The translations under genes were made by a program, and so were the position numbers. From positions 2,609 through 66,608 of the forward strand of contig CAZXDT010000002.1 in the NCBI GenBank assembly GCA_964639295.1: 64,000 nucleotides of DNA. Reading direction: 5' to 3'. The notes beneath the pieces were generated by a model. That model was not told the DNA's origin. It did no database searches and saw nothing but the letters and a program-made list of their open reading frames with translations. Origin of the DNA: an uncultured Candidatus Saccharibacteria bacterium (lineage in GTDB: Bacteria > Patescibacteriota > Saccharimonadia > Saccharimonadales > JALRHH01). Each line of letters starts with the position of its first letter. Within the stretch, counting starts at the first letter, position 1. Shown one piece after another: positions 19,069 through 62,842 of this stretch.

Positions 19069-19076
19069 GAAAACTA

Positions 19077-19880: not shown

Positions 19881-19896
19881 TCTGTCTATTGTAACG

Positions 19897-39126: not shown

Positions 39127-39133
39127 TTAAAGC

Positions 39134-39595: not shown

Positions 39596-39606
39596 ATACT
39601 TCTCCC

Positions 39607-40047: not shown

Positions 40048-40115
40048 GTTATGAATGTTTCTCTTTTGTTCAGATTACTCAGAGTATATCACCTTTGATA
40101 CAATGTAGAGAAGAT

Positions 40116-46269: not shown

Positions 46270-46270
46270 G

Positions 46271-47314
46271 TTACCCGTTACCACCAAGCTGCGCTACTGC
46301 GTCCTTTACCTTCTGGCTAATGTCTTTTCGGGTCACCAGTATGCCGTTAGGCGTGTTTATAACAGCAACGTTATCTAGCCCTATAACGGCCAATGGCTTG
46401 TCACAGTAGTTCTGGACAAGTGAATTCTCTACGTCTATTAGCGCAACTTTGTCACCATGCACGCTATTGCCAGCTTCGTCACTCTCTACTGCCTTGTGTA
46501 TATCAGCAAATGACCCAAGGTCCATCCAGTCAAAGGCTGCAGGCACTACGAGCAGATCTGGTACTTTTTCAATTAGTGCATAGTCAATCGCATCGTTTTC
46601 AAACCCAAGATATACATTCTTATAGTCGTCTTCGTTTACTGTAGTTACAAGATTCTCATAGTTTTCGAGTAACTTCGGGGAGTGCTTTTGCATGTTTGTC
46701 TTGAAGGTATTGAGTGAGCCCACAAAGTAGCCACAGTTCCATAGGTAGTTGCCACTCCGTACATATTCTTGAGCTACATCATGGGCTGGCTTCTCTTTGA
46801 ATGAATGCACGTTATATACGAATAGTTCTTCATCGAAGATCCCGTCCTTCTGAATGTATCCAAACCCGGTTGCTGGATGATCAGGTTCAACACCAACGAG
46901 CACTACTCGGCCCGAACGTGCCGAAGCTTCAGACGCTACCTTAAAGCTATGTGCAAAACCTTCCCCGTCACGAATAAAATGGTCAGCAGATAGTACTACG
47001 ATCGGTTCATCGGCATCATGCTTGCCATTGATATGTGCCAGTGCAGCAACAATGCAACTTGCGGTCCCGCGCCTTGCGGGTTCGATCACAAAGTTTTCAT
47101 CAGTTAAATCTGGTAGCTGCTCTTTTATGTGGTGAGCGTGGCTTACCTCAGTAATAACATAAGTAGCATCGCTGATTCGCTTCGCACGCTCATAAGTGTT
47201 TTGTAATAACGACTTACTGTCACCGTTGATTTTCAGAAGGTGTTTTGGGTAGTCTGGGGTGGAAAGTGGCCATAAACGGGTACCTGATCCCCCAGCAATT
47301 ATCACTGTTATCAT
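46271..47314 (-). CDS. Mannose-1-phosphate guanylyltransferase-like sugar nucleotidyltransferase
   Basis: VIIAGGSGTRLWPLS is the NTP_transferase signature. The product is 347 aa. Confidence 0.85.
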   Translation of the reverse strand: MITVIIAGGSGTRLWPLSTPDYPKHLLKINGDSKSLLQNTYERAKRISDATYVITEVSHAHHIKEQLPDLTDENFVIEPARRGTASCIVAALAHINGKHDADEPIVVLSADHFIRDGEGFAHSFKVASEASARSGRVVLVGVEPDHPATGFGYIQKDGIFDEELFVYNVHSFKEKPAHDVAQEYVRSGNYLWNCGYFVGSLNTFKTNMQKHSPKLLENYENLVTTVNEDDYKNVYLGFENDAIDYALIEKVPDLLVVPAAFDWMDLGSFADIHKAVESDEAGNSVHGDKVALIDVENSLVQNYCDKPLAVIGLDNVAVINTPNGILVTRKDISQKVKDAVAQLGGNG

Positions 47315-47447: not shown

Positions 47448-48008
47448 ATGAAAAAACAAAAAAAATCCACATACGATAGTAAAAAGATACTGGTAGTCAT
47501 TGTAGTCGCCACTCTAGTAGTCGCAATTGCATGGTTCTTTATTACAAGAAACTCCCAGCCCCCAAGTGGGCAGGCTACTAATGGCCAGAACCAACCCGGT
47601 ACAGAAAAGCTTGATATGTCACCTGCTACCGATAAAGACAAAAAAGATGCCGAGAGCACTAAAGATACAATTATTAAGAAGGATGAACAAACAGCGCAAC
47701 CACAAACCGGGAGTAAAACAGTTACACCGACAATTATTGATGCTGGACAGTATGATCAAAGTATTGAGGTAAGAGCTTTCATAGGTAGCGTGTACGAGGA
47801 TGGCGGAACATGTGTATTTACCTTTAAGTCCAGCAGTCAAACCATTACAAAGAGCAGCCCAGGGCTCAAAGATGCAACAACGACCAGATGTACTAATATC
47901 AGCGTCCCCAAAAGTGAGTTTTCTAATGGCTCTTGGTCCGTCGTAGTCTCATACTCATCTACAACCGCCAGTGGTAGCTCTACAGCAAAGGTATTTGAAG
48001 TTAAATGA
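47448..48008 (+). CDS. Membrane-anchored hypothetical protein
   Basis: A Lys-rich N-terminus is followed by the TM helix ILVVIVVATLVVAIAWFFI. It overlaps the next gene by 4 nt (ATGA). Confidence 0.65.
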   Translation: MKKQKKSTYDSKKILVVIVVATLVVAIAWFFITRNSQPPSGQATNGQNQPGTEKLDMSPATDKDKKDAESTKDTIIKKDEQTAQPQTGSKTVTPTIIDAGQYDQSIEVRAFIGSVYEDGGTCVFTFKSSSQTITKSSPGLKDATTTRCTNISVPKSEFSNGSWSVVVSYSSTTASGSSTAKVFEVK

Positions 48009-50008
48009 TCCTTACTAACAATGTCAAAAGGGTAACTCTCGGGACTATGATAATAGTCTCTTGTTTGGTATTCATCTCCTCTACTCTGGCATCAGCACTG
48101 TCGGGGGCAGATTTCCAAGCCGGCCGCATTACTGATGATGGAGTATTTTTTAATGCAGGGTCGTTAACAACTTCAGATATCCAGGCTTTCCTAAGTGCAA
48201 AAGTTCCGGTATGTGACACGAATGGGACACAGCCGTATGGTGGCACCACACGTGCTGCATATGGTACCAGTAAGGGGTATCCCCCTCCTTACATTTGCCT
48301 GAAGGATTATCGGCAAGATACCCCGGCAAAAGCAGCAGAGGTGGGCTTATGTAATGGAATAGTTGCAGGTAGCAATAAATCTGCGGCACAAATAATCTTT
48401 GAGGTCGCACAAAGCTGTAGTGTTAGCCCTAGAGCACTCATTGTATTACTCCAAAAAGAGCAAGCTTTGGTTACAGACGATTGGCCATGGAGCTCACAGT
48501 ATCGAAGCGCAACCGGATATGGTTGCCCCGACACAGCTGCTTGCGACAGTGCATATTATGGGTTTTTCAACCAGGTATACTCTGCCGCTAGGCAGTTCAA
48601 GAACTACGCAAGAGTTCCAAGCTCATTCAACTACATTGCTGGGCGAAACAACTACATACAGTACAACCCAAATGCCTCGTGTGGTGGCTCAACAGTATTC
48701 ATCCAGAATCAAGCTACTGCTGGTTTGTATAACTACACCCCTTACCAGCCTAATGCATCTGCTCTAAATAACCTCTACGGCACTGGAGACGGATGCGGGG
48801 CTTATGGTAACCGTAACTATTGGCGCCTTTACAACGACTGGTTCGGTTCAACATTTTCTCCCGAGTACGCTTGGGATGTAGTAAGTCAGCAATATACTAA
48901 TAATACCGCTGATATTGTGGCGGGTAGCACCACGCAAGTTACGTTAGTTGCTCGCAATACAGGCTTACAAACCTGGTATAGAGATGGCGCAAATGCAACA
49001 CACCTCGCTACATCAAATCCCAATGACAGAGCAAGCGGTTTCAACGATAGTAGTTGGTTCGGATACAACCGGCCAGCAATCTTGCAAGAGGCAAGCGTCG
49101 CACCTGGGCAGACAGGAACATTCACTTTTATCGCTAAAGCCCCGGCCTCACCAGGGCAATATAGAGAATACGTGAACCTGGTTGCCGAAGGTAGGGCATG
49201 GTTCGCCGGTCCAGCAGTTAACTTCTACTTCAATGTTCTGCCTCGAGTATTCAGCTGGCAAGTTGAATCACAATCGTACTCACCGTCAACGGCTTACCCA
49301 TTAGCTGGGAGTGAGTCGGTACTCACCTTAAAAGCAAAGAATACAGGCAATGTAACTTGGAAAAACTCTGGTCCAGGCGTGGTTAACCTAGGGACGATTA
49401 ACGAGACACTGAGCCAGTATTACCACCCTACATGGATTGGTAAGACAAGACCTGCAGCCCTACAGGAAGCAAGCGTCGCACCTGGGCAGACAGGAACATT
49501 CACCTTCCGTATTAACGTGCCCAAGAATCCGGGAGAATACCGGGAATACTTTAATCTAGTATCAGAAAATGTCGCTTGGATGCAAAATCCAAATATGAAT
49601 TTTTACCTTGGTGTTCAGGCTCGTAATTACAGTTGGAGAATAGTATCTCAGCAGTATTCCCCAAACACTGTCAACGTCAAAGCTGGTACAACGGCACAGA
49701 TCACTCTTATTGCACAAAATACCGGCAATGTTGCATGGAGCAATACGGGACCGTACCCCATACTACTTGGTACCTCAAACTTACAAGACCGTACAAGCAT
49801 ATTCCAAAATTCCAGCTGGATAGGCTATAACCGTCCGACTATATTGCAAGAGCCAAGTGTCGCCCCAGGTTCAAACGGAACATTCACATTTACCGTTAAG
49901 GCTCCTCAGGCAACTGGACAATACCGAGAATATTTTAATCTTGTAGCTGAAAACTTCACTTGGATGCCAAATCCAAACATGAACTTCTTCTTTAATGTAA
50001 CTCCCTAG
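48005..50008 (+). CDS. Secreted protein: Cys-containing N-terminal domain plus three tandem ~126-aa Ig-like (NBR1-like) repeats
   Basis: The signal-like N-terminus is MIIVSCLVFISSTLASA. Three repeats each end in SVAPGQTGTFTF...PGxYREYFNLV. The family call is from memory. Confidence 0.8.
   Translation: MILTNNVKRVTLGTMIIVSCLVFISSTLASALSGADFQAGRITDDGVFFNAGSLTTSDIQAFLSAKVPVCDTNGTQPYGGTTRAAYGTSKGYPPPYICLKDYRQDTPAKAAEVGLCNGIVAGSNKSAAQIIFEVAQSCSVSPRALIVLLQKEQALVTDDWPWSSQYRSATGYGCPDTAACDSAYYGFFNQVYSAARQFKNYARVPSSFNYIAGRNNYIQYNPNASCGGSTVFIQNQATAGLYNYTPYQPNASALNNLYGTGDGCGAYGNRNYWRLYNDWFGSTFSPEYAWDVVSQQYTNNTADIVAGSTTQVTLVARNTGLQTWYRDGANATHLATSNPNDRASGFNDSSWFGYNRPAILQEASVAPGQTGTFTFIAKAPASPGQYREYVNLVAEGRAWFAGPAVNFYFNVLPRVFSWQVESQSYSPSTAYPLAGSESVLTLKAKNTGNVTWKNSGPGVVNLGTINETLSQYYHPTWIGKTRPAALQEASVAPGQTGTFTFRINVPKNPGEYREYFNLVSENVAWMQNPNMNFYLGVQARNYSWRIVSQQYSPNTVNVKAGTTAQITLIAQNTGNVAWSNTGPYPILLGTSNLQDRTSIFQNSSWIGYNRPTILQEPSVAPGSNGTFTFTVKAPQATGQYREYFNLVAENFTWMPNPNMNFFFNVTP
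48866..50005 (+). repeat. Three tandem ~378-nt intragenic domain repeats
   Basis: The repeat units start near 48866, 49244 and 49622. Units 1 and 2 share an exact 35-nt block, gcaagcgtcgcacctgggcagacaggaacattcac (49091-49125 and 49469-49503). Confidence 0.85.
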
Positions 50009-51321
50009 ATACTTTTATCTATGGCGTTATGAATCTGTAGGTAGGTACTGTGCCATGTTTGACTCTTATACATGGCTTTGATTTGAGATTGTTTCGTAAG
50101 TAACTCTTTATCACTAGAGTACTTCACTATCTGATCGAGACAGGTTTGCGCGTCGAAAGGAGCGAAGTAGTCAATCAGATCACCAGCAATTTCAGGCATT
50201 GAAGAGGTGTTTGAAGAAATACATACTTTACCGTAAACAAGACTTTCTGCAATCGGCATACCCCATCCCTCGTATACAGAAGGGTAGACTGTAAACCTAC
50301 AGTTCTCGTATAACCAAACGAGCTGTGCATCAGTCACTCCATTAAGGATTACGATATCACCTTCTATATCAGGATCAGTTGCTACTTCAAAAAGGAGATC
50401 ATCTACAAGCCAACCCGGACGACCTACAATGACGAGTCTTGGCAGTTTAATAGACTGGAGTTTAGCTAGTTTGTATGTTTGGTACAGAAGACGGTGGTTC
50501 TTTCTCACCTCAATCGTACCGATACAGAGTATAAAGTCACCGTCTGGAAGAATAGGGGGCCTTTTTGGTGAAACTCTTGATTCTAGTACATCACTTAAGC
50601 GGACGACCGTTACTGGTTTTTTGGACAGACTTGTTTCTTGAAGGAATTTTAGAATATCCTTCTTGCTTGCTTCAGAGTTAGTCAATACAACGTCCGAAAC
50701 GGATAACGCGTCAAACATGTATTCGGTATACGCTCTCGGAAACCCTGGACCAAAAAATTGTGGGTGGTACACAGGAATCATATCGTGGACAAAGTGAGCA
50801 ATCCTGATTGCAGTATGCTTTTTTATTGCTGATAAGTCGTTAATAATTGTAGGCTTGCCCCAACCAGCACCAATAATTATAACGGTGTCACCTGCTAGGA
50901 AGTGTATCAAACGATCTCGGGAGCCACCCTTAGTCCTTGTAAAACTCTCTTTCAAGGCCTTTGCACCGTAGAAACTTTTTCTAAGGATAGGTCGTGCGAC
51001 GGGAGTTATTCTTTTCCTCAGCTCTGTTGGCACATATCCCGCGTAAATATTTTTTGCACTAACGACAACTTTTAAATACTTTTCCAGGAAGGACTTCTCC
51101 ACCTCCACCGGGTCGTCGTCAGTAGTCGCTACGGGGATAACTGTAGAAAAATCAACTTCATAAAAACTATGTGAGCGTTCGTCATACCAAAAGAAACCAG
51201 CATCGTCACGTTGGCTGTACTCTTTAGCAACACTAAATATTGTTCTCGGTATACCAGTGTAGTTTCCTGTCCAGGTTATAAGATCAGTTAGATCAACCCA
51301 GTATTTCTTGTTCGCGCTCAT
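50005..51321 (-). CDS. Glycosyltransferase family 4
   Basis: YPSVYEGWGMPIAESLVYGKV is the EX7E motif. It overlaps the convergent gene by 4 nt. Confidence 0.85.
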   Translation of the reverse strand: MSANKKYWVDLTDLITWTGNYTGIPRTIFSVAKEYSQRDDAGFFWYDERSHSFYEVDFSTVIPVATTDDDPVEVEKSFLEKYLKVVVSAKNIYAGYVPTELRKRITPVARPILRKSFYGAKALKESFTRTKGGSRDRLIHFLAGDTVIIIGAGWGKPTIINDLSAIKKHTAIRIAHFVHDMIPVYHPQFFGPGFPRAYTEYMFDALSVSDVVLTNSEASKKDILKFLQETSLSKKPVTVVRLSDVLESRVSPKRPPILPDGDFILCIGTIEVRKNHRLLYQTYKLAKLQSIKLPRLVIVGRPGWLVDDLLFEVATDPDIEGDIVILNGVTDAQLVWLYENCRFTVYPSVYEGWGMPIAESLVYGKVCISSNTSSMPEIAGDLIDYFAPFDAQTCLDQIVKYSSDKELLTKQSQIKAMYKSQTWHSTYLQIHNAIDKSI

Positions 51322-52517
51322 ATTGATTCTAGCTCCTCTTTTAGTGGCCTCAACGCTTCATTCCATAAAACATCTTCAACTCTGTCTGCCGGCTTGCCCT
51401 CTGTAGCCGTGCTCCTGATGCTGCGCATTTGCTCATGGAAATCAGACTTACTTTTCGCCAGTCGGACAACCGGTAGCCCCATAAAACTCTCATAGGCCCT
51501 AAATGCATACGGTGTTGCAATGATATTTTTTCCCGACAGTAGAGCCTCCGCGGTTTTAAGGTTGGAGCCCCCGCCTTCAGTAATTGGTAGTAAAATGGCA
51601 TCGCAAACACTAATTAGAGCCGCCAAGCTAGCTTCACTGAGACGGCCCGCAACTTCTGCCCTTTTCCAAAACGTTACTTGATCTGGGCTAAGCCCCCCAT
51701 ACATCCTCTCGGCAAGATCACATACGCTTCCCGCAAGAACAACTCGCTCATCAGCCTCAAGGAAACCCAAACTAGGACCAACCATAGCCTCAAAGCCAAG
51801 CCAGTTTGGAACATGCGCACTACTAACAAAAAGGTATGTTCTGTTAATGCCTCTTTTTTTGAAATATTTTTTCCAATATCTGACCCAGTAACCAGACAGT
51901 GGTACAGATGCAATACCGTTTGGTGCTGTGACTACTTTTTTAGCACCTAAATCCATAAGAGTACTTGCATCTTGGGCACTAACAGCTATCGATAAATCTG
52001 CGTCAGTCGCGAGTAACTTCTCGTAGTTGATAATTGTCTCCACCATTCTTGTTGCCTGGTCAACAGGGATGCCAACGTTAGCGTAAATCTCTTTTTTCAT
52101 CTCATGTTCAATATTATGAGAACTGTAAATAATTCTTGGGGTCAGATTAAGTTCCTTTAGTAGCTCTTTAAGCCCTATATAAGGATAGACCTGTTCAAGT
52201 TGTATAATTTCCGGCCTAAACTTGAGAAGGACTTTTGTGAGTTTCCTCTTAACAATTAAATCTTCGCTGATTGCCTCACCACAAAGAATGTCTTCAGAGT
52301 GTGGGCTTTGCTCTATTTTTTTCAACGTGCCCTGAGATACGGCAATATCGTCAGAGCCATGTGCTGGATGTGCAACTTTATTGTATACGGCAACATACTT
52401 GACCTGGCTAAACATGGACCTGTAGAGCTGGATTATGGCGGCTACCCTCTTAGGACCACCCTGGACCGAACGTGATATGGGATATGTACCGATAACAAGG
52501 ACTTTTGAGCTCAGCAT
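51318..52517 (-). CDS. Glycosyltransferase (GT-B fold, GT4-like)
   Basis: The C-terminal part ITEGGGSNLKTAEALLSGKNIIAT resembles a GT1/GT4 nucleotide-sugar binding site. It overlaps the downstream gene by 4 nt. Confidence 0.72.
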   Translation of the reverse strand: MLSSKVLVIGTYPISRSVQGGPKRVAAIIQLYRSMFSQVKYVAVYNKVAHPAHGSDDIAVSQGTLKKIEQSPHSEDILCGEAISEDLIVKRKLTKVLLKFRPEIIQLEQVYPYIGLKELLKELNLTPRIIYSSHNIEHEMKKEIYANVGIPVDQATRMVETIINYEKLLATDADLSIAVSAQDASTLMDLGAKKVVTAPNGIASVPLSGYWVRYWKKYFKKRGINRTYLFVSSAHVPNWLGFEAMVGPSLGFLEADERVVLAGSVCDLAERMYGGLSPDQVTFWKRAEVAGRLSEASLAALISVCDAILLPITEGGGSNLKTAEALLSGKNIIATPYAFRAYESFMGLPVVRLAKSKSDFHEQMRSIRSTATEGKPADRVEDVLWNEALRPLKEELESI

Positions 52518-52528
52518 GTATTTACCTA

Positions 52529-53734
52529 TTACTTTACTAAACTTTTAACTTTTACGTCCGGTGCAATATCAAACGGTGTAGGCCTGAGCTTATGGACAGA
52601 GAATGTCGTGGCTTCATTCCACCAGTCACAAACGCGTATGTCATCACTGTGTGATGCAGCTACTGACACAAAGTATGTGCCTGTTGCAAAGATGTCCTCG
52701 AATTCCCAATCGACATCTATCTCTTGCCCGGCTTTAACTAGACCAAGTTTATGCCCTTCAATTTTCATGTTTGTGCCAATAAGCGGTGTATTGTCGCCTG
52801 TTTTCACCTGAAAACCTAGGCTAGGATCTTCAAGGTCTGCATTTGCTACGGCTGACACTTTGAGGTGGACCATGCCACTATCGTCGTCGACTTTTGCAGA
52901 AGCTGTTTTGATTGTGATCTGACCATCACCCCACCTATCACCAGCCACTTTCTTTGGGTCAGTGCCTGGCTTGACTTGCCCATCGTCAATAAATAGCTGT
53001 AAGTAGTTTTGGGCTATTTTTTCAGGGTCGCCTTGATGAGTTATTTTACCCTTTTCAATAAGTATAGCTCTATCACAATACTCTCTTATAGCACTCATAT
53101 CATGACTGACGAGAATGACAGTGGTGTTTTCTTTTTTAAGTTTCTTAAAGTAGTCGAAACATTTTCTCTGAAAGTCAGCATCTCCAACCGCAAGTACCTC
53201 ATCAATAAGCAAGATATCTGCCTTTGCCTGTATAGCAAGAGAGAAAGATAGACGGACCTGCATTCCTGACGAGTAATTTTTCAGTTTTTGATCCATAAAC
53301 CTTTCGAGTTCTGCAAAATCAACAATATCTTGATATAGCTCATCGATTTCCTTTTTTGAGAAGTTCAGCAGTGCGCCGTTTAAATAAACATTCTCGCGTC
53401 CTGTTAATTCTGGGTTAAATCCAACTCCAAGTTCAATAAAAGGGACGAGCTTTCCTTCGATCTCGACGTGGCCATCCGTAGATTGATATATGCCTGCAAG
53501 GATTTTAAGCAGGGTGCTCTTACCACTACCGTTCCTTCCAACAATCCCGACAAACTCACCTTCTTTAATGTCAAAAGAGACATCATCAAGTACTTGTTGG
53601 ACCTCGTAAGACCGAACTAATCGTTTTTTTCCGAGCACATTTACAAAGAAGCTTTTTGCGGTATTTACCTTCTCGTGTGGCAGCTTAAAACGTTTTGAAA
53701 CACTGTCAACTTTTATAACTATCTTGTTAGCCAT
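52529..53734 (-). CDS. wzt: Polysaccharide ABC exporter ATP-binding protein (Wzt/TagH-type) with C-terminal glycan-binding-like domain
   Basis: Walker A GIVGRNGSGKSTLLK, signature YSSGMQVRLSFS and Walker B LLIDEVLAVGD are present. An extra ~150-aa beta-rich C-terminal domain (DRWGDGQITI...) follows. Confidence 0.88.
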   Translation of the reverse strand: MANKIVIKVDSVSKRFKLPHEKVNTAKSFFVNVLGKKRLVRSYEVQQVLDDVSFDIKEGEFVGIVGRNGSGKSTLLKILAGIYQSTDGHVEIEGKLVPFIELGVGFNPELTGRENVYLNGALLNFSKKEIDELYQDIVDFAELERFMDQKLKNYSSGMQVRLSFSLAIQAKADILLIDEVLAVGDADFQRKCFDYFKKLKKENTTVILVSHDMSAIREYCDRAILIEKGKITHQGDPEKIAQNYLQLFIDDGQVKPGTDPKKVAGDRWGDGQITIKTASAKVDDDSGMVHLKVSAVANADLEDPSLGFQVKTGDNTPLIGTNMKIEGHKLGLVKAGQEIDVDWEFEDIFATGTYFVSVAASHSDDIRVCDWWNEATTFSVHKLRPTPFDIAPDVKVKSLVK

Positions 53735-54549
53735 TACACATCCTCCGCGAAACTACCCGAATGCTTACGGAAGTACATGAATGAAAGAACTACCGATATG
53801 GCTGCAATACCCACGGGTATGAGTCGTACCCACCAATTACCATATAAGGTTGAGATCGTGTCGGTTTTACTGGTTATCAAACAGTATCTCAGGTCTTGTA
53901 TGATCTGAGCGACTGGGCTTGCTACAAGAATTTTTGCAGCCTTATCAGGCACAAGCGAGAGCGGGTATAGAATCGGGGTGGCATAAAAAGCACCTTGCAT
54001 GATCACCTCCCATATATATCCTACATCTCTCAGCCTGACATAGAGCGCACTCAAGAAAAATGCGATAGCTAGAGAGAACATGAACAACTCAAGCACTAAA
54101 AATGGCGCCAGCAAGCCAGACAGCCGGAAGTCAACGCCATTTATAAACATAAAGAAGAGGACTATTAGAAGATTGATTGCTAAGTTTATCAATGCGGAGA
54201 AAGATCCCGCTAGTACGATTACATACTTCGGGAAGTTCAATTTACGAATTAAATCCCCCCTAGAGACAATGGACGTTACACTTCCAGTCGTGATCTCTAC
54301 AAAGAAGTTCCAAAGAACAATGCCAAGCAGTAAATAAACTGGATAATGTGGTACATCTGCGCCAATTTTCAAGAACTTAACGAAAACAATATAGAGAATC
54401 AAGAATATCGCCAAGGGCCTCAGCAACGACCATAAATACCCTAAAAAGGAACCTTGGTAGCGAAGCTTGAAGTCTGTTTTGACAAGCTGCTTTAATAAGA
54501 TTAACGAGTAGCGGTAACGCTCAGACTGTTTACGTAATATATTTGTCAC
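53734..54549 (-). CDS. wzm: Polysaccharide ABC exporter permease (Wzm/TagG, ABC-2 type)
   Basis: Six TM helices are present. It overlaps wzt by 1 nt. Confidence 0.85.
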   Translation of the reverse strand: MTNILRKQSERYRYSLILLKQLVKTDFKLRYQGSFLGYLWSLLRPLAIFLILYIVFVKFLKIGADVPHYPVYLLLGIVLWNFFVEITTGSVTSIVSRGDLIRKLNFPKYVIVLAGSFSALINLAINLLIVLFFMFINGVDFRLSGLLAPFLVLELFMFSLAIAFFLSALYVRLRDVGYIWEVIMQGAFYATPILYPLSLVPDKAAKILVASPVAQIIQDLRYCLITSKTDTISTLYGNWWVRLIPVGIAAISVVLSFMYFRKHSGSFAEDV

Positions 54550-54591: not shown

Positions 54592-56703
54592 TTACTTGCA
54601 ACCTAAGTTATCTATTAGAAGTGTTGTTTTCTTGCTTTCGGCTTTTAGGGCTATTGTGTTTGATTTAGTGATGAACTTCACCTCTTGATTCTGTGAAGAA
54701 ACACTAAGTCTAAGGTTAACTTTATCGCCGTCAGTAATCGTAACAGTATCCGCTCCATATTCGGCTCGTAGATCTAGGCACACTGATGAACCACTCGCAC
54801 TATCGTATCCAGGCAAACCCCTAATTGACAGCGTCGTACTATCTGACGCTCTATAGGAGAGACTAACTGGATTGGTGTACAACGGATCCAAGAAGCCAAG
54901 CGAGGGCATCAATACATACCCAACTTTGGGACCAGGAAGTACTTCATAGACAAATATTGGAGTCCACTTTGGGTTGTCACTAATATTAGTATCGGAGTAG
55001 ATTAACTTAAGGCCAGGGTTGTCTATTAGTTGTGGTGCACCATGTGTAACTACCGTATCAATCCCAAGCTGTCTAAGAACCGGCAACGTTTGTGGGTCAT
55101 TAAGATCTCTTATTGAATTTCTCAGAAGTGCTTCTTTGCTATTTGGTAAATAGGCATTCAGTAGGTTCTTACGATGAACAGTCTGCACCGTCGCGTAACC
55201 ACTTGGTAGCGTAGTTTGGGCTGGCTCATCTAGCGGGTATTCAGCAATATTCCGAATACTCTGATTTGCTTTAATATCAAAATAGATAGGGGGTACATCA
55301 CGTTTATAGTTCCATGTAGGTCGAGTTATCCCAAAGGTTTGATAGCTCAAGAATACCGTGAAGAAGATCAGCAAATATGCTACATATTTAATCCATCTTA
55401 GTGCTATTGCCCGTGTGATATAGGTGATACCAATAGAGCTAAAGATAACTAGTGCAATATTAATAGCCACGTATTGTCTCGAAAAAACTCGCCATATTGT
55501 GACATAATCCGTCAGATAGTATGTGGGTGTTTTATGCCCTAGGTACATAGGGGGGAGACTGAGTAAAAATGCCAGAAGCCCTATCGTCAGAGCAACAACA
55601 ATGACAGTACGTGGGTTAATGGCAAACCCGTGGTTCGACTTCCAGACCTTACCTCGTGTCAATTTCTCCCATAGTATGATTACTATGAAACAAAATGATA
55701 TAAACAATAGAGTCCAGCTCAAATAGACAGTAAATTCTGCTGTATTTGAACCGTGATGTTGATAGTTCTGAATAAAGTGCTTACCGGGGAGATGTTCTAC
55801 TAAAGGGCTCGATGCAGGGGGTAGTAGGTACTCAATCGGCCTACTGCTATATATATTTGCATCATACTTTATGTCATTTCTCGAATTAGACACAAACGAG
55901 TTTATAGAGGCGGCGTAGTGCACCCTTACAAACAGAAGAGGTATAAGCAACGTCATTGAGACCAAAGCAGCCAAGCAAACTCTTTGAGTGCGTTGACGTA
56001 AAAGTGGTCGCTCGGATTTTTCTAGAACATTAATTACAAAAAGACTACTTAGGCTTCCGATCAGAATAATGCCAACAAGAAGGATGAAGTAAGGGTCAAT
56101 GTAACCTGATGCTGCAGTTAAAACACCGAGTGATATCGGCCAAAGTCGTTTCTTGGAGCTCCACAGTAACAGCGTTATCCATAACACACCTACCAGTAAC
56201 ATCTGATAGCCATAACTTGGGTGAACACTCACTTTCGTTTGAAAATAAGGTGCAAAACTTAATGCAAAACCAGCCAATAAGGCAACCCAATTATTTCTAG
56301 TTAGCCACTTGATAAAAGCAAACATAACAACTGCAGAGCCCACAAAACCCACAAAGTTCAGTATGTTATATGAACATATCGAACCGAACACATGTGAAAG
56401 TACCCAGTAAAATGTATACAGGAGTATGCTACTCCAGTGAACGGGCTGCCATAAGTTCTCACCAATCGGGAAGTTTGTTGCGTTTGTAAAGCCCCATATA
56501 AGTGAGTGATTGGTTACCGAATTTAACCATATAGGCCCCGCTGTACTATCGCCCATTGACAGAACCGTGTTCGAGCAACTAGTTAATGCTGGACGCATAT
56601 ACCAGAATGCCGCTATAGCATAGAAGACTGTAGCTAGTAACCATGGGGAACTCAATTTTGTTATGAGAGGAGGTTTCTTCAGGATAGCTACTTTGCGCTT
56701 CAT
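54592..56703 (-). CDS. Large polytopic membrane protein, GT-C/YfhO-like putative extracytoplasmic glycosyltransferase
   Basis: The 703-aa product has at least 12 hydrophobic helices in the first ~465 aa, then a ~240-aa soluble C-terminal domain. It sits in the glycan locus. The functional call is inference. Confidence 0.6.
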   Translation of the reverse strand: MKRKVAILKKPPLITKLSSPWLLATVFYAIAAFWYMRPALTSCSNTVLSMGDSTAGPIWLNSVTNHSLIWGFTNATNFPIGENLWQPVHWSSILLYTFYWVLSHVFGSICSYNILNFVGFVGSAVVMFAFIKWLTRNNWVALLAGFALSFAPYFQTKVSVHPSYGYQMLLVGVLWITLLLWSSKKRLWPISLGVLTAASGYIDPYFILLVGIILIGSLSSLFVINVLEKSERPLLRQRTQRVCLAALVSMTLLIPLLFVRVHYAASINSFVSNSRNDIKYDANIYSSRPIEYLLPPASSPLVEHLPGKHFIQNYQHHGSNTAEFTVYLSWTLLFISFCFIVIILWEKLTRGKVWKSNHGFAINPRTVIVVALTIGLLAFLLSLPPMYLGHKTPTYYLTDYVTIWRVFSRQYVAINIALVIFSSIGITYITRAIALRWIKYVAYLLIFFTVFLSYQTFGITRPTWNYKRDVPPIYFDIKANQSIRNIAEYPLDEPAQTTLPSGYATVQTVHRKNLLNAYLPNSKEALLRNSIRDLNDPQTLPVLRQLGIDTVVTHGAPQLIDNPGLKLIYSDTNISDNPKWTPIFVYEVLPGPKVGYVLMPSLGFLDPLYTNPVSLSYRASDSTTLSIRGLPGYDSASGSSVCLDLRAEYGADTVTITDGDKVNLRLSVSSQNQEVKFITKSNTIALKAESKKTTLLIDNLGCK

Positions 56704-57593
56704 TAAAAAAGCTTTTTCTTGGATGTAAATATAAGATTTTCGTTGCTATAGACCGGCATGTCGTCTAGTTGTTTCTTGGTAACAGTCTCTAGTTTGTTGT
56801 TGATCTCATCTACCCTGAAACAAGTTGTATAGTTTGCAAATAGTAGCCTGGTAAATTCTCTTCTATCAAATCCGCATTCCTTCATTGCCCCAGGACTGAA
56901 CTCTATGAATACAACCGGCTTGTGTTTCTTGATCGTTGCGAGCGCACCTCTCAGGGCGAATCCATCATAGCCTTCAATGTCTATCTTCAAAAGATCAACA
57001 TTATTCACATTATTCTTCTTTACATAGTTATCGATTGTAATCTGCTGCACCTCAACTGGCCTGGAACCTTTGCCAGCATTACTCTGTGCAGCAGAATGAT
57101 TGCCAATATTTACATCCGACTGATAAATCACTATCTTCTTGGGCGTGTCACCTACTGCTACATTATTAACCACTATCCTTGACGTCAACTTATTTAAAGC
57201 TGCATTCTTTTTCAGCATAATCACGTTTGCGACTATGGGCTCAAAAGTTATTATTTTTGCTGTCTTAGGAGCAAACTTTGCCCCAAGTACCGCGTAGAGT
57301 CCTATATTCCCACCAACATCCAGGGTGACCTTAGAATTTGCTACAATTTTCTTGTACACATCTAACTCATAAGACTCGTAGTACCCCCCTACGAGTCCGG
57401 GTACCAAAGCCCTGTCAGAGGTTGGAGCTATAAGCTTGATCCCTTTGTAGCTGATTTCAATCTCTTCACCCTTATGACCGGCTTGAAAGATAGCACCTTT
57501 GATCTTACTTGTAATTGTCCAGCTATTTATAGGAGTGTGTACAAAGATTCTTCTAAAGAACTTAATAATACCAAGGGACAAAGAACTCAACAT
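56703..57593 (-). CDS. FkbM family methyltransferase
   Basis: The SAM-binding motif is LDVGGNIGLYAV. FIEFSP and IDIEGYD segments are typical of Methyltransf_21. Confidence 0.85.
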   Translation of the reverse strand: MLSSLSLGIIKFFRRIFVHTPINSWTITSKIKGAIFQAGHKGEEIEISYKGIKLIAPTSDRALVPGLVGGYYESYELDVYKKIVANSKVTLDVGGNIGLYAVLGAKFAPKTAKIITFEPIVANVIMLKKNAALNKLTSRIVVNNVAVGDTPKKIVIYQSDVNIGNHSAAQSNAGKGSRPVEVQQITIDNYVKKNNVNNVDLLKIDIEGYDGFALRGALATIKKHKPVVFIEFSPGAMKECGFDRREFTRLLFANYTTCFRVDEINNKLETVTKKQLDDMPVYSNENLIFTSKKKLF

Positions 57594-57606: not shown

Positions 57607-58437
57607 TTATCTATCTTTAAACCTTAATAGTATATCAAACGTACTACCTTTAACGGATATGGGCGAGGCGTACGTGATATCAAAATCACCAAACTTCTTA
57701 CGAAGAATATCCAGCATTTCACTGTGTTGATAGTCGCGCTCTCGATCAACAGACATTTCCATAAACAGATAATCAAAGTATATATCGTCTAGAGTCTTAA
57801 CAACTGTTTTCTCGAATCCCTCAACATCAATCTTGACGAGGTCATACTTCTTCCTATTGGTTAGTGGTTGGATTGAATCCGTCATTCGTACATCTACCCC
57901 TTCAATTCTCGACAGGTTCTCGGATGCATTTGACTTCAAAAGTGATCCTGTAGCAGAACGTCCAGGTTCATAGTACATTTTTGCCTTTTTATCTGCTGGA
58001 CCAATAGCATATTCGTAAGCTTTCACGTTTGGTAAGCCTGCAATATTTTGCCTAAGCAAAGGAAATACTTCACCGTTAGGTTCAAACACATCAATCTTTG
58101 CCTTCCCATCAAGTGCATAATTCATAGTTACACTGAACTGTCCAAGGTTGCCACCGATATCAAGTACGGTCTTGGGATGTATATGCATATTCGCTAGGAT
58201 CTTTTTATTAATCTCGTAAGGGTAATTCTGAAGGTTCAACGGTGTTGCGATATTATCGAAAACAAAGTCTGTACCCAAGTATGAGATCGTCCTACTTCGT
58301 CCAAACAGTACACCCAATATTGTAAAAGCTATCGACGGATAATAGGTTAGTTTATGACGAAGACGTATGCCTCCGGTGAGCCATTCTCTATTTCTTTCAA
58401 TTGGCATCAAATTCTTAATATAGTGCGTGACTCTCAT
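57607..58437 (-). CDS. FkbM family methyltransferase
   Basis: The SAM-binding motif LDIGGNLGQFSV and the KIDVEGFE segment are present. Confidence 0.85.
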   Translation of the reverse strand: MRVTHYIKNLMPIERNREWLTGGIRLRHKLTYYPSIAFTILGVLFGRSRTISYLGTDFVFDNIATPLNLQNYPYEINKKILANMHIHPKTVLDIGGNLGQFSVTMNYALDGKAKIDVFEPNGEVFPLLRQNIAGLPNVKAYEYAIGPADKKAKMYYEPGRSATGSLLKSNASENLSRIEGVDVRMTDSIQPLTNRKKYDLVKIDVEGFEKTVVKTLDDIYFDYLFMEMSVDRERDYQHSEMLDILRKKFGDFDITYASPISVKGSTFDILLRFKDR

Positions 58438-59468
58438 TACTTTACCTTAGCCTTAACTGATGTGATCAATTTTATTATTGTTGCCTTCCAGATACCAAGT
58501 GCGTAAATAATTGCGAAGATTGGCGAAAGCAAAAATAAAGACAAAGCATCCTTAAATGCCACCCCGAGGGCTATGGCAGTTAATAGTTCAAGCACCCACA
58601 GTATCACTAAAACTACGGTTACAGGTAGTAGTATTGAGGAATTCAGAATTACTGATATAAGGACGGCTGCTGAGCCAATCAAAAAAGCCGTAAGTGGGAG
58701 GAAGAAGCGATTGCCTGGGCTCAAGAATCCCGCAACAAAAGACTGCCCCCTGAACATTGTGTGTCGGACAAATTGTAAGAGATTGGTTCTAGCATGATAC
58801 GTACAGGCAAAATCAGGTGATATATTGATGCGATGTCGTTCTGCTATTAGCCTTATAAGGTGTGTGTCGTCACTAGAGTTACGAATATCAAACGTTTCTT
58901 TCTCAAAGCGCTTGGTGGCTTCAAGGATTATTTTCTTTGGTACAAAAAAGCACGTTGTACCCTTTGGAAAGTAGTCAAATTCCTTGAGGCCATAGGAGGT
59001 AAGCCGAGGGTCAGAAAAGTACCTTCGCCATCCAATAAAAGTTATTGCGTCGCCGAAACGAGCAATAATATTTCCTTCTTTTTTAACATTAACGTGGGAA
59101 TTCCATACTTCTCTCTCGGGGTGCTCTTTAAACTGTGTAGTTAAGAATTTCAACGCGTTCTTATCTAAGAAAACACGACTGTCAATAAATAAGATACTGT
59201 CGAAGCTTGAAGCCATAACGCCAGCCTTTCTAGCCAAATACCTACCTGAGTTCTTTTGGTCAATCACACGCACCTTGACTGATGCTTTCAGTTTGTGCGC
59301 TACGATAGACGTATCGTCCGAAGATCCATCATTGACAATAACTACCTCTGCACGCTTGATTCCAGCCTCAATGAGAGCGATATCAAGCTTTCCTACAGTT
59401 GGCTCAAGCCAAGCTGCAGAATTATAAGCAGGGATTATTATGCTAACTCCAAAAGACATTGCATTCAT
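58437..59468 (-). CDS. Glycosyltransferase family 2 with C-terminal TM helices
   Basis: SIIIPAYNSAAWL and VNDGSSDDT are present, followed by three or four C-terminal hydrophobic helices. Confidence 0.85.
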   Translation of the reverse strand: MNAMSFGVSIIIPAYNSAAWLEPTVGKLDIALIEAGIKRAEVVIVNDGSSDDTSIVAHKLKASVKVRVIDQKNSGRYLARKAGVMASSFDSILFIDSRVFLDKNALKFLTTQFKEHPEREVWNSHVNVKKEGNIIARFGDAITFIGWRRYFSDPRLTSYGLKEFDYFPKGTTCFFVPKKIILEATKRFEKETFDIRNSSDDTHLIRLIAERHRINISPDFACTYHARTNLLQFVRHTMFRGQSFVAGFLSPGNRFFLPLTAFLIGSAAVLISVILNSSILLPVTVVLVILWVLELLTAIALGVAFKDALSLFLLSPIFAIIYALGIWKATIIKLITSVKAKVK

Positions 59469-59528: not shown

Positions 59529-60788
59529 ATGAGATCAAAGTTTTCAAATTTTTACTTCACATCTGGACTTTTTGCGGTGATTTCTTGTGTTGCCGCCGTA
59601 CTAAACTATCTACTCTACCCGTCAATTAGCCATCTTCTGGATACTGCCAGCTTTGGTAGTTTCACGGTATTGAATGCAATAACAAATCAGTTTTTTGGTA
59701 TTTTACTAGCTTTTAACTTAACAAGTATCTACATCGTGAAGACTTTCCCGGAAAAAGAAGCCAAGGAGAACGCTCAGACTGTGCAAAAGTCCTTGATATG
59801 GATGTTCTGTGTGTTGTGTATTGTTCTGTTATTCTGTTCCCCGATACTAAATCAGAAGCTAAAGATAGAGGAGCCTTTTGCCTTCTTGGTGATTGCGTTT
59901 ACACTTCTCGTGTCTGTACCAGCCGTTGTATGGACAGGTTATCTCCAGGGTCATAAGAAAATACTCCACGTTGGGGTCTTTGGCGTTGTGTCTGCCTTGT
60001 CTAAGTTAATAGCCGCACTTGTCGCAGCAAGTCTGTTTGGTGTAGTTGGAGGTCTCGTTGGCGTCCTGGCTGGATCCCTTGTTGGTCTGGCTATACTAAA
60101 ACTCACTAGCCCAGTGGAGTTACCACGCATTAGCTCAATATTTTCAAGGTTCTCCAAACCACAGCGAGCATTCTTAAAGTCGTCAAGATCTTACCTTATG
60201 GGCTCAGTCGTTATAGTTGGGGTATTGGGTGTCTTGCAAAATATAGATATCACCTACGCAAAGTACCTTTTTAGCCCAGAAGTTGCTGGAGCATACTCTG
60301 GTATTAGCATTCTAAGTTATGCGGTCTTTTTTGGATTCTTTGTACTTTTTTGGATAGTCCTACCAGAAATTGACTTAAACAAACCCCTTCACAACAAACA
60401 GCTTTTAAAGACTACGTATAAAATAGTTGCAACACTTGGAACCACCGCAATACTACTGACACTTGCAGCACAACACCTGATCGTCAGACTATTATTAAAC
60501 GATGACTTTTCGCACCTAAGTAACATGTTGGTATTTGCTGTAACATACCAAATATTTCTGGTATCAGTAACGCTTTATACGTACTATTTATTAGTAATCC
60601 GTAGTAAGTTTAGCTTATTGCTAGCTGCTTGCGTGGCAATACCTTCGTTGTCGCTCCCTTTGACAGCAGACAGTCCTATGCAGCTAATCGTACTATTGAA
60701 CGTAGGTATTCTTACTGGGTTTAGTATTTTTCAGACGATTAAGCTAGTATTAGCTATCAGGAGTAAGTATGTCAAAACAACTCATTAG
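59529..60788 (+). CDS. Oligosaccharide/polysaccharide flippase (Wzx-like, MOP superfamily)
   Basis: The 419-aa product is almost entirely hydrophobic, with about 12 TM helices, and sits in the glycan locus. Confidence 0.72.
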   Translation: MRSKFSNFYFTSGLFAVISCVAAVLNYLLYPSISHLLDTASFGSFTVLNAITNQFFGILLAFNLTSIYIVKTFPEKEAKENAQTVQKSLIWMFCVLCIVLLFCSPILNQKLKIEEPFAFLVIAFTLLVSVPAVVWTGYLQGHKKILHVGVFGVVSALSKLIAALVAASLFGVVGGLVGVLAGSLVGLAILKLTSPVELPRISSIFSRFSKPQRAFLKSSRSYLMGSVVIVGVLGVLQNIDITYAKYLFSPEVAGAYSGISILSYAVFFGFFVLFWIVLPEIDLNKPLHNKQLLKTTYKIVATLGTTAILLTLAAQHLIVRLLLNDDFSHLSNMLVFAVTYQIFLVSVTLYTYYLLVIRSKFSLLLAACVAIPSLSLPLTADSPMQLIVLLNVGILTGFSIFQTIKLVLAIRSKYVKTTH

Positions 60789-61713
60789 TGTTATCGTCCC
60801 CGTTCATAACGAAGCAAGTAACCTAGCGTGGCACCATAAGAAGATCGTCAAGGTCTTGGAGAAGATTCCATTTAGAGCAGAGGTAATATACGTGAACGAT
60901 GGCAGTTCAGACTCATCTCTTGATATCTTGAAAACGCTAAAAGCTAAAGAGATAGACGTTAGATACATAAGTTTCTCGCGAAACTTTGGTAAAGAAGCCG
61001 CCACCTCAGCTGGCCTGCAAAACTGTAAGGGGGATGCGGCTATTATGATTGATGCAGACGGACAGCATCCAATTGACATGTTGCCTCAGTTCATTAAGGA
61101 ATGGCTTGCTGGCAACCATGTAGTTATTGGAGTAAGGACCCAGAACACAAACGAAGGTTTAGTAAAAAAATACGGGTCTCTTGCTTTTAATAAGGTATTG
61201 AACTCCTTCACGGGAGGTAATACTAAGCCGGGTTCGACCGACTTCAGACTCTTGGATCGACGAGTCATTAACCAATTTAATACCCTAACCGAACACAATC
61301 GCATTACACGGGGTTTAATTGACTGGCTCGGATTTAAACGTAGTTTTGTTGAGTTTATAGCCCCCGCACGGCACAGTGGTGAGGCGTCCTATGGTGTTGG
61401 CAAACTTATTAAGCTTGCTTTTCACGCACTTGTTTCACAAACAACAAAGCCCCTACAGGTAACAGGTCTTCTGGGTGTCTTAGTGATGGCCCTTTCTGCT
61501 ATTGTAGGAATCGCTATAATTTTCGAGAAGTATGCCCTAGGGGATCCACTGGAACTTGCGATCACCGGGACGGCTCTTTTGGCCTTGTTTATCAGCTTCT
61601 TGGTTGGCCTTGTTATGATAAGCAATTGGTTACTAGCTTTGTACATTGAGAGTATTCACAGCGAGACACAGAATCGACCACTGTATATCGTAGAAGAGTC
61701 GTCTGACGAATAG
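60769..61713 (+). CDS. Polyprenol-phosphate glycosyltransferase (GT2; GtrB/ArnC/Dpm1-like)
   Basis: AGGAG lies upstream of the ATG. ISVIVPVHNEASNL, YVNDGSSDSS and MIDADGQHP are present, plus two C-terminal TM helices. It overlaps the flippase gene by 20 nt. Confidence 0.88.
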   Translation: MSKQLISVIVPVHNEASNLAWHHKKIVKVLEKIPFRAEVIYVNDGSSDSSLDILKTLKAKEIDVRYISFSRNFGKEAATSAGLQNCKGDAAIMIDADGQHPIDMLPQFIKEWLAGNHVVIGVRTQNTNEGLVKKYGSLAFNKVLNSFTGGNTKPGSTDFRLLDRRVINQFNTLTEHNRITRGLIDWLGFKRSFVEFIAPARHSGEASYGVGKLIKLAFHALVSQTTKPLQVTGLLGVLVMALSAIVGIAIIFEKYALGDPLELAITGTALLALFISFLVGLVMISNWLLALYIESIHSETQNRPLYIVEESSDE

Positions 61714-61714: not shown

Positions 61715-62842
61715 CTAGGAGTTAATGTATCCTTCTTTCATAAAGTAGTTGATAACCACTTTTGATGGTGAAGTCTTATTACTCATCTTTGCAAAATCTG
61801 CCTTATTGCTGTGGTTTTCCAGAAAGTTTGCTACCTTCTTAACATCCATGCGTGAGATGTCGGCATTTAAGCCCAAGCCCTCGCTTCTCTCAGTCCTTCC
61901 GCGATGCACCATAGTAGGAATACCCAAGAAAAATGCATCTTCTTGTAAGCCACCGCCGTCAGTCACAATGTAGTCTGCGCCGTTCACGATCGCCATAAAG
62001 TCAAAGTAGGGTTGTTTGGGAATGGTCAGGAAGCCCTCTTTATTGAAGTAATGCTCAAAGCCGTATGCTGCAATTTTTGCTTTGGTTGTAGTATGTTCAG
62101 TAAACACGACTGGGGTTTTAGCACTAGCGTGCTTATTAAGAACCTTCAGAATAGCCTCAAGATCAGTCTTATTCTCTAATAACTCCGTTCTGTGAAGCAA
62201 AACAAGGCAATAGCTTTTTGGGAGGTTCAGTTTCTTAAGTTCATCACTTTTGTACTTATCTGCTCTCTCTATCGCATCTTTTGCGGTGTTGTAAGTTGTA
62301 TTCACAATTATACCCTTAACCTTTTCGCCCCTAAGGTTTGCCTCCGCATCTTCATTCGGTGCAAAGTGTATGCGTGCAAACTTGGCAGCAATTCTTCTGT
62401 CAATCTCCTCTGGGAATGGGCTCTTCCAGTGTCCGCTTCGTAGTCCTGCCTCAACGTGAGCAACAGGTAGCCCCAGTGCCTTTCCTAAGTAACAGCCCAC
62501 AACGGTAGTAAGAGTATCTCCGTGTACAACGGCAACACTCTTCGTGTTGTGAGCCTTATCATAACTCTTGATTTTTTTCTTTATTGACCTGAATTGTCTG
62601 GCAAATGACGAGTGTGATTGGACCATCATCAAAAGCATCTGCTTCATGTTTGCCACGTCTTTTCCACGCCAGCCCCTAGAGAGGTAAACATCCGGTTCTA
62701 TCCCTAGTTGCTTATGTACCTTCTGTAAGCCGGCATGCTGCTGTGCATTACATATCAACAGCTGTTCTTCTCTGGGGATACCTTTAATAATACCTAGTAT
62801 TTTGATAAGCTCTGCGCTTGTCCCGTAAAATACAACTACCAT
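61715..62842 (-). CDS. wecB: UDP-N-acetylglucosamine 2-epimerase (non-hydrolysing, WecB-like)
   Basis: HVEAGLRSG and VTDGGGLQEDAFFLGIPT...GRTERSEGL motifs are present. Confidence 0.85.
   Translation of the reverse strand: MVVVFYGTSAELIKILGIIKGIPREEQLLICNAQQHAGLQKVHKQLGIEPDVYLSRGWRGKDVANMKQMLLMMVQSHSSFARQFRSIKKKIKSYDKAHNTKSVAVVHGDTLTTVVGCYLGKALGLPVAHVEAGLRSGHWKSPFPEEIDRRIAAKFARIHFAPNEDAEANLRGEKVKGIIVNTTYNTAKDAIERADKYKSDELKKLNLPKSYCLVLLHRTELLENKTDLEAILKVLNKHASAKTPVVFTEHTTTKAKIAAYGFEHYFNKEGFLTIPKQPYFDFMAIVNGADYIVTDGGGLQEDAFFLGIPTMVHRGRTERSEGLGLNADISRMDVKKVANFLENHSNKADFAKMSNKTSPSKVVINYFMKEGYINS

Follow-up and report, generated by a model that had tools for sequence, protein, structure and literature searches.

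A predicted GacIJKL-like glycosylation locus around an unclassified GT-C membrane protein family in Candidatus Saccharibacteria

A 64-kb stretch of Candidatus Saccharibacteria (TM7) DNA (hereafter the window, to which all coordinates refer) was analysed around an open reading frame (ORF) for a large polytopic membrane protein of 703 amino acids (aa). By its modelled fold this protein appears to be a GT-C glycosyltransferase, and by analogy with characterised systems its locus can be described as a GacIJKL-like multi-component glycosylation system, a type of system already known, organised around a new GT-C sequence family. We consider it rather probable that this GT-C enzyme, a lipid-sugar synthase and a Wzx-type flippase add sugars outside the membrane to an exported surface polysaccharide; the genes for the three proteins are syntenic across very divergent Saccharibacteria. 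A preliminary description of the same DNA had proposed a three-component system formed by GtrA, a GtrB-like enzyme and the large protein, and the three ORFs were found where it had placed them (54592-56703, minus strand, 703 aa; 39607-40047, minus strand, 146 aa; 60769-61713, plus strand, 314 aa). Its GT-C call and the link to GtrB held, the assignment of GtrA proved weak, and a Wzx-like gene, the ABC export genes and a GT2 that is fused to the GT-C family in other genomes had been missed. The proteins at the centre of the analysis, with the names used below, are the following:

54592..56703, minus strand: predicted GT-C-fold membrane glycosyltransferase of an unclassified family, 703 aa, from its AlphaFold2 model, Foldseek, conservation and topology (GT-C)
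60769..61713, plus strand: predicted GtrB/ArnC-type polyprenyl-phosphate glycosyltransferase of family GT2, 314 aa, with a full-length GtrB/ArnC match (GtrB-like)
59529..60788, plus strand: Wzx/MOP-type polytopic protein, 419 aa, whose homologues carry PF01943 (MOP)
58437..59468, minus strand: membrane-embedded GT2, 343 aa, first gene of its operon, from its AlphaFold2 model and Foldseek (GT2s)
39607..40047, minus strand: GtrA-family small membrane protein, 146 aa, PF04138, E=7.1e-14 (GtrA)

Homologues of GT-C numbered 61 in a 90%-identity database, every one of them from Saccharibacteria and without an assigned name, and a profile of 51 homologues matched 3,413 representative clusters (50% identity) at E<=1e-3 and 483 at E<=1e-30. 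Because of these homologues and profile-matched clusters, the ORF is taken as a real, conserved gene. No significant match to the 703-aa protein was obtained in Pfam (E<=0.01), in NCBIfam or by phmmer against the PDB, and a search of the PDB with the profile of the 51-member family returned nothing significant. When the 51 members were scanned individually against Pfam, only stray matches to PMT_2, DUF7657 and GH127M were observed; PMT_2 was matched in two members (best E=3.7e-4) and YfhO in none. Comparison of the family with a GtrII protein by hhalign gave a probability of 0.5%.

The 703-aa protein was modelled with AlphaFold2 on the 51-sequence alignment, which yielded a model with a predicted local distance difference test (pLDDT) score of 89 and a predicted TM-score (pTM) of 0.90. 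The model was compared with the PDB by Foldseek, and the best 32 matches were all GT-C enzymes (E-values from 4e-8 to 4.5e-3, TM-scores of 0.40-0.56), in agreement with the GT-C type proposed in the preliminary description. They comprised STT3, AglB and PglB, which were the best matches, together with EmbA/B/C, AftA, DPY19, ALG9/12, Pmt4 and ArnT, the last with a TM-score of 0.56 on the target. Neither Wzy, O-antigen ligase and SEDS folds nor transporter folds were present among the listed matches, so that the transporter, polymerase or ligase models named earlier as contrary outcomes were not encountered in this search. On fold, a transporter identity was discarded. Wzy or O-antigen ligase identity was rejected as well, since Wzy_C was matched in one of 51 members at a non-significant E=0.053 and no such fold was matched, and an oligosaccharyltransferase (OST, GT66) was rejected because the W[WYF]D[YFW]G motif is absent from the window protein and from all 51 members, with no Pfam STT3 match. 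The modelled fold thus places the protein among the GT-C enzymes, apparently outside every named family.

Topology was derived from the AlphaFold helices and the positive-inside rule. The N-terminus, rich in Lys and Arg, is placed inside, the first external loop (residues 42-86) is devoid of Lys and Arg, and about 11 membrane spans are present, not the 12 or more counted previously. The SMGDSTAG stretch of the first loop, singled out earlier as a possible acidic motif, contains the family motif GDSTAGPIW, in which G51 and D52 are invariant in the 51 sequences; with the N-terminus inside, D52 is an invariant acidic residue in the first external loop, as in GT-C enzymes. The invariant polar residues D52, N77, K157, H161, D203, E323, R405 and R409 all lie in external loops or at the interface, and from the model we nominate D52, K157, H161, D203, R405 and R409 as candidate catalytic residues. 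Two near-invariant cysteine pairs (C43/C110 and C642/C702), placed outside the membrane by the topology, could form disulfides. The C-terminal domain (residues 454-703) is also outside, as had been proposed, with about 250 aa against the 240 guessed, and it ends in a beta-sandwich that resembles CBM29, CenC-like and tail-fibre modules in Foldseek. In the Foldseek viral library one weak full-length match was found, together with matches of tail-fibre or carbohydrate-binding-module (CBM) type to the C-terminal domain. Within the family, conservation is lowest in the terminal beta-sandwich, and many profile matches end near profile position 565; because of its weak conservation, it fits a variable acceptor-binding module.

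The closest sequence family was DUF6311 (PF19830), which aligned with the GT-C family by hhalign with a probability of 91% (E=1e-6) over 364 columns of the transmembrane domain, including the GD, YPxG, H-x-x-x-G and PYF motifs. A precomputed PF19830 match exists in three of the 61 homologues and the window protein has none at E<=1; moreover, the DUF6311 protein that neighbours GT-C in locus L012 lacks the long C-terminal domain. From these comparisons the GT-C family is best described as a distant relative of DUF6311 and not a member of it. No paper on DUF6311, PF19830 or DUF7657 turned up in the literature search.

GT-C belongs to a minus-strand operon of eight genes (GT2s, two FkbM genes, GT-C, Wzm, Wzt, a GT4-like gene and a GT4 gene) with gaps of -4 to +42 nt, a context that the preliminary description had overlooked. 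The other genes of the operon, and those of the window that are considered together with it, are:

57607..58437, minus strand: FkbM-family methyltransferase (PF05050, E=1.5e-10; TIGR01444, E=2.3e-20)
56703..57593, minus strand: second FkbM-family methyltransferase (PF05050, E=1.4e-18; TIGR01444, E=1.3e-29)
53734..54549, minus strand: Wzm-type ABC-2 permease, 42 nt downstream of GT-C (PF01061, E=1.1e-15)
52529..53734, minus strand: Wzt-type ABC ATPase with a C-terminal Wzt_C glycan-cap-binding domain (PF00005, E=2.2e-23; PF14524, E=8.2e-19)
51318..52517, minus strand: GT4-like glycosyltransferase, a weak match under the Pfam cut-off (PF13439, E=6.4e-06)
50005..51321, minus strand: GT4 glycosyltransferase, last gene of the operon (PF00534, E=1.7e-17)
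45496..47314, minus strand: HAD-type phosphomannomutase and ManC-like nucleotidyltransferase (PF03332, PF08282, PF00483, PF22640)
40041..41540, plus strand: Bac_transf polyprenyl-phosphate hexose-1-phosphate transferase, candidate initiating enzyme (PF02397, E=5.1e-57)
38299..39126, minus strand: UppP/BacA undecaprenyl-pyrophosphate phosphatase, which recycles the lipid carrier (PF02673, E=1.8e-89)
61715..62842, minus strand: UDP-GlcNAc 2-epimerase-family enzyme (PF02350, E=6.9e-52)
47448..48008, plus strand: anchored Ser/Thr-rich protein of 186 aa, one of a pair neighbouring GT-C
48005..50008, plus strand: secreted protein of 667 aa with three NBR1-like Ig domains and a Cys-rich N-terminal domain (PF16158, E=9.9e-19)

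The stop codon of the second FkbM gene overlaps the start of GT-C by 1 nt. Export with cap recognition is represented in this one tight operon by PF01061, by PF00005 with PF14524 and by the two FkbM genes, and the predicted gene content is that of an ABC-transporter-dependent, cap-terminated glycan pathway. The FkbM enzymes are candidates for methylating or capping the glycan. Since GT-C sits together with the FkbM, Wzm, Wzt_C-bearing Wzt and GT4 genes, its acceptor is likely an ABC-exported, methyl-capped glycan. The phosphomannomutase and ManC-like pair probably supplies GDP-mannose, and another GT4 gene, GlmS and an APH-family kinase are also found near the operon. UppP had been noted beside the locus in the preliminary description, in agreement with the match listed above. 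The GC content falls from 0.46 to 0.40-0.41 over 52-60 kb, that is, from Wzt to GT2s, and a drop of this kind is usual for variable or exchanged surface-glycan loci. A scan for promoters and terminators between 49.8 and 63 kb gave counts at or under those of shuffled controls and was uninformative.

Conservation of this context was examined in 23 species-representative loci from Saccharibacteria/Saccharimonadales, seeded with GT-C, whose GT-C proteins are 29-38% identical to the window copy. GT-C is likewise directly followed by Wzm in L001 and L025, which carry the two closest homologues, and in L024. Most of the 23 loci have no large polytopic glycosyltransferase candidate within 10 kb other than the GT-C homologue, and the ORFs examined in the remainder of the window included neither another GT-C candidate nor an LCP-family gene. 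The genes for the 186-aa and 667-aa proteins are conserved convergent neighbours of GT-C in at least 12 of the 23 loci. The 667-aa protein, whose Cys-rich N-terminal domain has no Pfam or PDB match, might bind glycans or might itself be glycosylated at the cell surface.

The GtrB-like protein consists of a GT-A domain and, judged by the hydrophobic stretches of its sequence, two C-terminal transmembrane helices. Residues 6-310 of its 314 align with Synechocystis GtrB (5EKP) with E=4e-50, and ArnC is matched with E=2e-29. Owing to this end-to-end alignment with GtrB and ArnC, it is predicted to be a genuine polyprenyl-phosphate glycosyltransferase, and we propose it as the synthase of the lipid-phosphate-sugar donor. 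Its gene is the second of a two-gene operon, after MOP, which is divergent from the GT-C operon across a 60-nt intergenic gap. It lies 4.07 kb from GT-C, and at 4-7 kb in all 17 Saccharibacteria loci that were informative for this count, namely those with an upstream flank of 5.5 kb or more. Consequently, the role of lipid-sugar synthase given to it in the preliminary description is retained, and retention of the large protein without a GtrB-like gene, named there as a contrary outcome, was not seen at the locus level in these 17. The genes had been described as dispersed, which is correct for GtrA (14.5 kb from GT-C) and not for the GtrB-like gene in its nearby divergent operon. The conserved synteny with a GtrB/ArnC-type synthase points indirectly to a polyprenyl-phosphate-linked sugar as the donor of GT-C. 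The UDP-GlcNAc 2-epimerase-family gene, convergent with the GtrB-like gene at a gap of 1 nt and adjoining it also in L004, L023 and L025, is a possible sugar-nucleotide supplier.

It was also considered that GT-C glycosylates protein, either in the manner of PMT enzymes from a sugar on undecaprenyl phosphate (Und-P) or in the manner of an OST from a MOP-flipped glycan on undecaprenyl pyrophosphate (Und-PP), with the secreted proteins encoded at 47448-50008 as targets. The prominence of STT3, AglB and PglB among the Foldseek matches, with Pmt4 also matched, would agree with this, as would the weak PMT_2 score in two family members and the convergent Ig-domain and Ser/Thr-rich proteins. The best score of the GtrB-like protein in NCBIfam, moreover, was to PgfS of the Streptococcus mutans protein-glycosylation system (E=4.5e-61); that score, however, is 207 bits against an equivalog cut-off of 500. 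Similarly, the Foldseek scores are nearly flat across the GT-C families and do not favour OSTs, neither a WWDYG-type motif (0 of 51 members) nor a MIR domain is present, and GT-C shares its operon with Wzm/Wzt and has a C-terminal domain that is CBM-like. A protein acceptor is accordingly regarded as very unlikely, and an exported glycan is retained as the acceptor in what follows.

The flippase of the triad had been assigned to GtrA, and MOP had been overlooked. MOP homologues carry PF01943 (Polysacc_synt) and the JGI name "O-antigen/teichoic acid export membrane protein"; a search of the PDB with the MOP family profile gave no sequence match. The MOP gene overlaps the GtrB-like gene by 20 nt, lies between the GtrB-like and GT-C genes in 18 of the 23 loci, and is fused to GT-C in the metagenomic protein P0170 and in locus L077. 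The GtrB-like and MOP genes go together with GT-C in L025 as well, and many metagenome loci show this linkage. On this genetic association MOP appears to be a better flippase candidate than GtrA, as is GacK in streptococci, and GtrA is left as an alternative or additional candidate. If instead GtrA served the GtrB-like/GT-C pair, MOP would do other work, for example on an Und-PP-linked unit. GtrA does belong solidly to its family (PF04138), the GtrA-type flippases CflA and GtcA serve GT-A/GT-C pairs to which they are not genetically linked, and the second GT-C paralogue of L014 adjoins a GtrA gene. Nevertheless, only two of the 23 loci, L014 and L017, have GtrA within 10 kb of GT-C, whereas MOP accompanies GT-C in 18. 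Translation of MOP is coupled to that of the GtrB-like gene, MOP is twice fused to GT-C, and the 64-kb window yielded no polymerase of Wzy type for which a Wzx flippase would be required. We judge the assignment to GtrA to be improbable, and the window gene itself belongs to a separate operon.

That operon, an apparent single minus-strand unit at 38299-40047, encodes GtrA and UppP together with a protein of 153 aa that has a LexA DNA-binding domain. The Bac_transf gene runs divergently from this operon, which overlaps its start by 7 nt. A flippase-family protein beside a carrier-recycling phosphatase and a repressor-like protein is an odd pairing. L014, from a Saccharimonas genome, contains two GT-C paralogues in one locus, the second of which adjoins GtrA (17332-19509 and 19575-20039), and separate GT-C paralogues may use separate flippases. 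In L066 (14902, minus strand), L067 (2021, plus strand) and L071 (1378, plus strand) the MOP-family ORFs encode 662-699 aa, about 250 aa over the usual length, and MOP may be fused to other domains there.

A second, membrane-embedded GT2, also overlooked previously, is encoded by the first gene of the GT-C operon. The model of GT2s (pLDDT 93.7) shows a GT-A domain, an interface helix and a C-terminal transmembrane hairpin. In Foldseek it matched the hyaluronan synthase (HAS) CvHAS over its full length (7sp7, E=2e-12, TMq 0.63), with XlHAS1 and PcManGT also matched, and neither GtrB nor DPMS nor ArnC appeared among the best 50. The modelled fold is therefore of the hyaluronan-synthase or minimal cellulose-synthase-like type. 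The GT2s gene adjoins GT-C in 12 of the 23 loci. Among the top 150 matches of the GT-C profile, at least eight clusters sharing <=50% identity were proteins of about 1,050 aa in which a GT2 is fused N-terminally to the GT-C family, and this GT2 is orthologous to GT2s (45-51% identity over 330 residues; profile E-values of 1e-129 to 1e-150) and not to the GtrB-like protein. No paper describing GT2-GT-C fusions turned up in the literature search.

These fusions raise the possibility that GT2s makes the lipid-linked donor, which MOP would flip and GT-C use, and that the GtrB-like enzyme serves another transferase or step. In favour of it, GT2s lies directly upstream of GT-C on the same strand and often overlaps it, like the classical GT-A/GT-C pairs (L004, L015, L021), and its layout of a GT-A domain, interface helix and transmembrane hairpin is shared with GtrB and DPMS. 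In order to ask whether GT2s replaces GtrB, a second sample of 80 metagenome loci was collected with the alignment of the GT2s-GT-C fusions as seed. Three of the more distant ones (L066, L077 and L095) have GT2s, MOP and GT-C and no GtrB-like gene in the sampled flanks. By contrast, fusion loci with adequate flanks (L028/29, L030 and L031-33) keep divergent MOP and GtrB-like genes within 5 kb, and 10 of 22 GT-C-seeded loci are without GT2s within 10 kb, all of them with a GtrB-like gene. The closest folds of GT2s, HAS and PcManGT, are processive synthases. Distant GT2s homologues, besides, occur without GT-C in 12 loci with flanks of at least 10 kb, and in six of these they adjoin Wzt. On balance GT2s is an unlikely donor synthase, and the GtrB-like enzyme is kept in that role. 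The arrangement in which MOP and then the GtrB-like gene are transcribed away from GT2s, (FkbM) and GT-C was found in at least 11 further metagenome loci.

Because each of GT2s and GT-C occurs without the other, and six GT2s loci lie beside Wzt, the two are separable and GT2s tracks the ABC pathway, which links its family to ABC-transporter glycan pathways in general. GT2s probably takes part in building the acceptor glycan and is often joined physically to the GT-C that decorates this glycan. In L070, L073, L075, L076, L082 and L086 the GT2s homologue is located 1-3.5 kb downstream of Wzt with no GT-C nearby. A neighbour-joining tree of the GT-C homologues did not split the loci with GT2s from those without it and gave no sign of clade-specific co-evolution. 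The 273-aa GT2 without transmembrane segments that accompanies GT-C in loci lacking GT2s was discarded as a counterpart, being an orthologue of neither GT2s nor GtrB.

Most unusual of all are the fusions of GT-C with GT2 and with MOP. Their recurrence could mean that the proteins form one physical membrane machine in which glycan synthesis in the cytoplasm (or a new polyprenyl-phosphate-sugar synthase of HAS fold) is linked directly to lipid flipping and to external GT-C transfer, an idea to which we assign a low probability. If it were true, such a "cis" glycosylation module would be new among characterised GT-C systems and widespread in Patescibacteria (3,413 clusters).

In the mechanism that we favour, Bac_transf would prime undecaprenyl phosphate at the cytoplasmic face, the GT4 enzymes and GT2s would assemble a glycan, probably with mannose in it, and this would be methylated by the FkbM enzymes. 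Wzm/Wzt would export this glycan, its cap being read by the Wzt_C domain. In parallel, the GtrB-like enzyme would load a sugar onto undecaprenyl phosphate and MOP would flip the product, with a possible contribution of GtrA. Through D52 in the first external loop and the CBM-like C-terminal domain, GT-C would then transfer the sugar to the exported glycan, and UppP would recycle the lipid carrier. Several points weigh against this proposal. The donor sugar, the acceptor and the flippase are all inferred, and GT2s, fused to GT-C in at least eight lineages, could be the true donor synthase, all the more in the three metagenome loci where the available flanks show no GtrB-like gene. PF01943 was matched in only 7 of 25 MOP family members, the window MOP itself being under Pfam significance, and GtrA-type flippases often act while genetically unlinked. 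Neither an LCP ligase nor another final acceptor was identified in the window, and some related loci contain extra GtrII or DUF6311 membrane glycosyltransferases that are possible partners of GtrB there.

The closest known arrangement is that of the streptococcal Gac locus. In Streptococcus pyogenes, GacI, GacK (the proposed Wzx-type flippase) and GacL act on the rhamnan exported by GacD/E, and loss of GacL, the GT-C enzyme, leads to the accumulation of GlcNAc-P-Und (PMC8035078; bioRxiv 10.1101/180810). A GT-A synthase of Und-P-sugar, a proposed Wzx-type flippase, an external polytopic GT-C and an ABC-exported acceptor are likewise brought together in one locus here, which by analogy would be the Saccharibacteria counterpart of GacI/J/K/L plus GacD/E. 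Unlike the streptococcal system, the window has a membrane-anchored GT-A of GtrB/ArnC type, so that no GacJ-like helper would be needed. The bacterium is a Patescibacterium, its GT-C comes from another sequence family that is unclassified, and the backbone genes encode GT4, synthase-like GT2 and FkbM proteins with a Wzt_C-bearing Wzt instead of the rhamnosyltransferases of Gac.

The synthase-flippase-GT-C logic is also that of GtrA-GtrB-GtrC of phages and Shigella, of CsbB/GtcA/YfhO of Bacillus subtilis and of GtlA/GtcA/GtlB of Listeria, and the window shares with GtrABC the full-length GtrB homology and the presence of a GtrA-family gene in the genome. In contrast to these systems, however, the window GtrA is not syntenic with GT-C, the proposed acceptor is neither lipopolysaccharide (LPS) O-antigen nor lipoteichoic acid, and GT-C has no detectable similarity to the GtrII, YfhO and PMT_2 Pfam models. 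The polymannan pathway of Escherichia coli O8/O9a uses ManB/C, the WbdA-C GT4 enzymes, the terminator WbdD and Wzm/Wzt with a C-terminal CBM. The GDP-mannose supply, the GT4 enzymes, possibly the capping methyltransferases, and Wzm with a Wzt_C-bearing Wzt resemble it, whereas that pathway is without a GT-C, GtrB or Wzx decoration module; the window methyltransferases are of FkbM and not WbdD type, and the envelope is not that of a diderm with LPS.

Saccharibacteria are obligate epibionts whose surface governs host choice and attachment, and the glycans of their envelope are still essentially uncharacterised. When predicted exopolysaccharide genes were inactivated in one cultivated strain, they proved essential or a growth deficit followed (PMC10633639). 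The present analysis assigns a fold to a large "hypothetical" membrane family of 3,413 clusters (50% identity) that has no Pfam model and proposes for it a role that can be tested, and it recognises the GtrB-like, Wzx-like, GT2s and GT-C genes as a conserved cassette. The pairing of a Wzx-type protein with a synthase of lipid-monophosphate-sugar would also be a second example of its kind, this one outside the Firmicutes, and bears on the question of which proteins flip Und-P-sugars.

Some further genes were observed in the related loci and in the remainder of the window. Directly downstream of the GT-C homologue, a GtrII-type gene (PF14264, E=6e-29) is present in L009 (12176-13690) and a DUF6311 gene (PF19830, E=2e-30) in L012 (12152-13831); loci of this kind may make several extracytoplasmic decorations. 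The APH-family kinase of the window (42646-43656, plus strand) is located between a GT4 gene and GlmS. Since N-acetylhexosamine 1-kinases belong to the APH-family fold, a sugar-1-kinase supplying nucleotide-sugar synthesis is a possible identity for this protein. A soluble acidic protein of 490 aa (35910-37382, minus strand), with no Pfam match and with a C-terminal, zinc-ribbon-like pair of CxxC motifs, is encoded between the UppP region and a cytidylyltransferase-like gene. Finally, in two large minus-strand ORFs, 19897-22176 (759 aa) and 23518-25422 (634 aa), only CarboxypepD_reg-like beta-sandwiches are recognisable, and their products may be surface proteins or adhesins.

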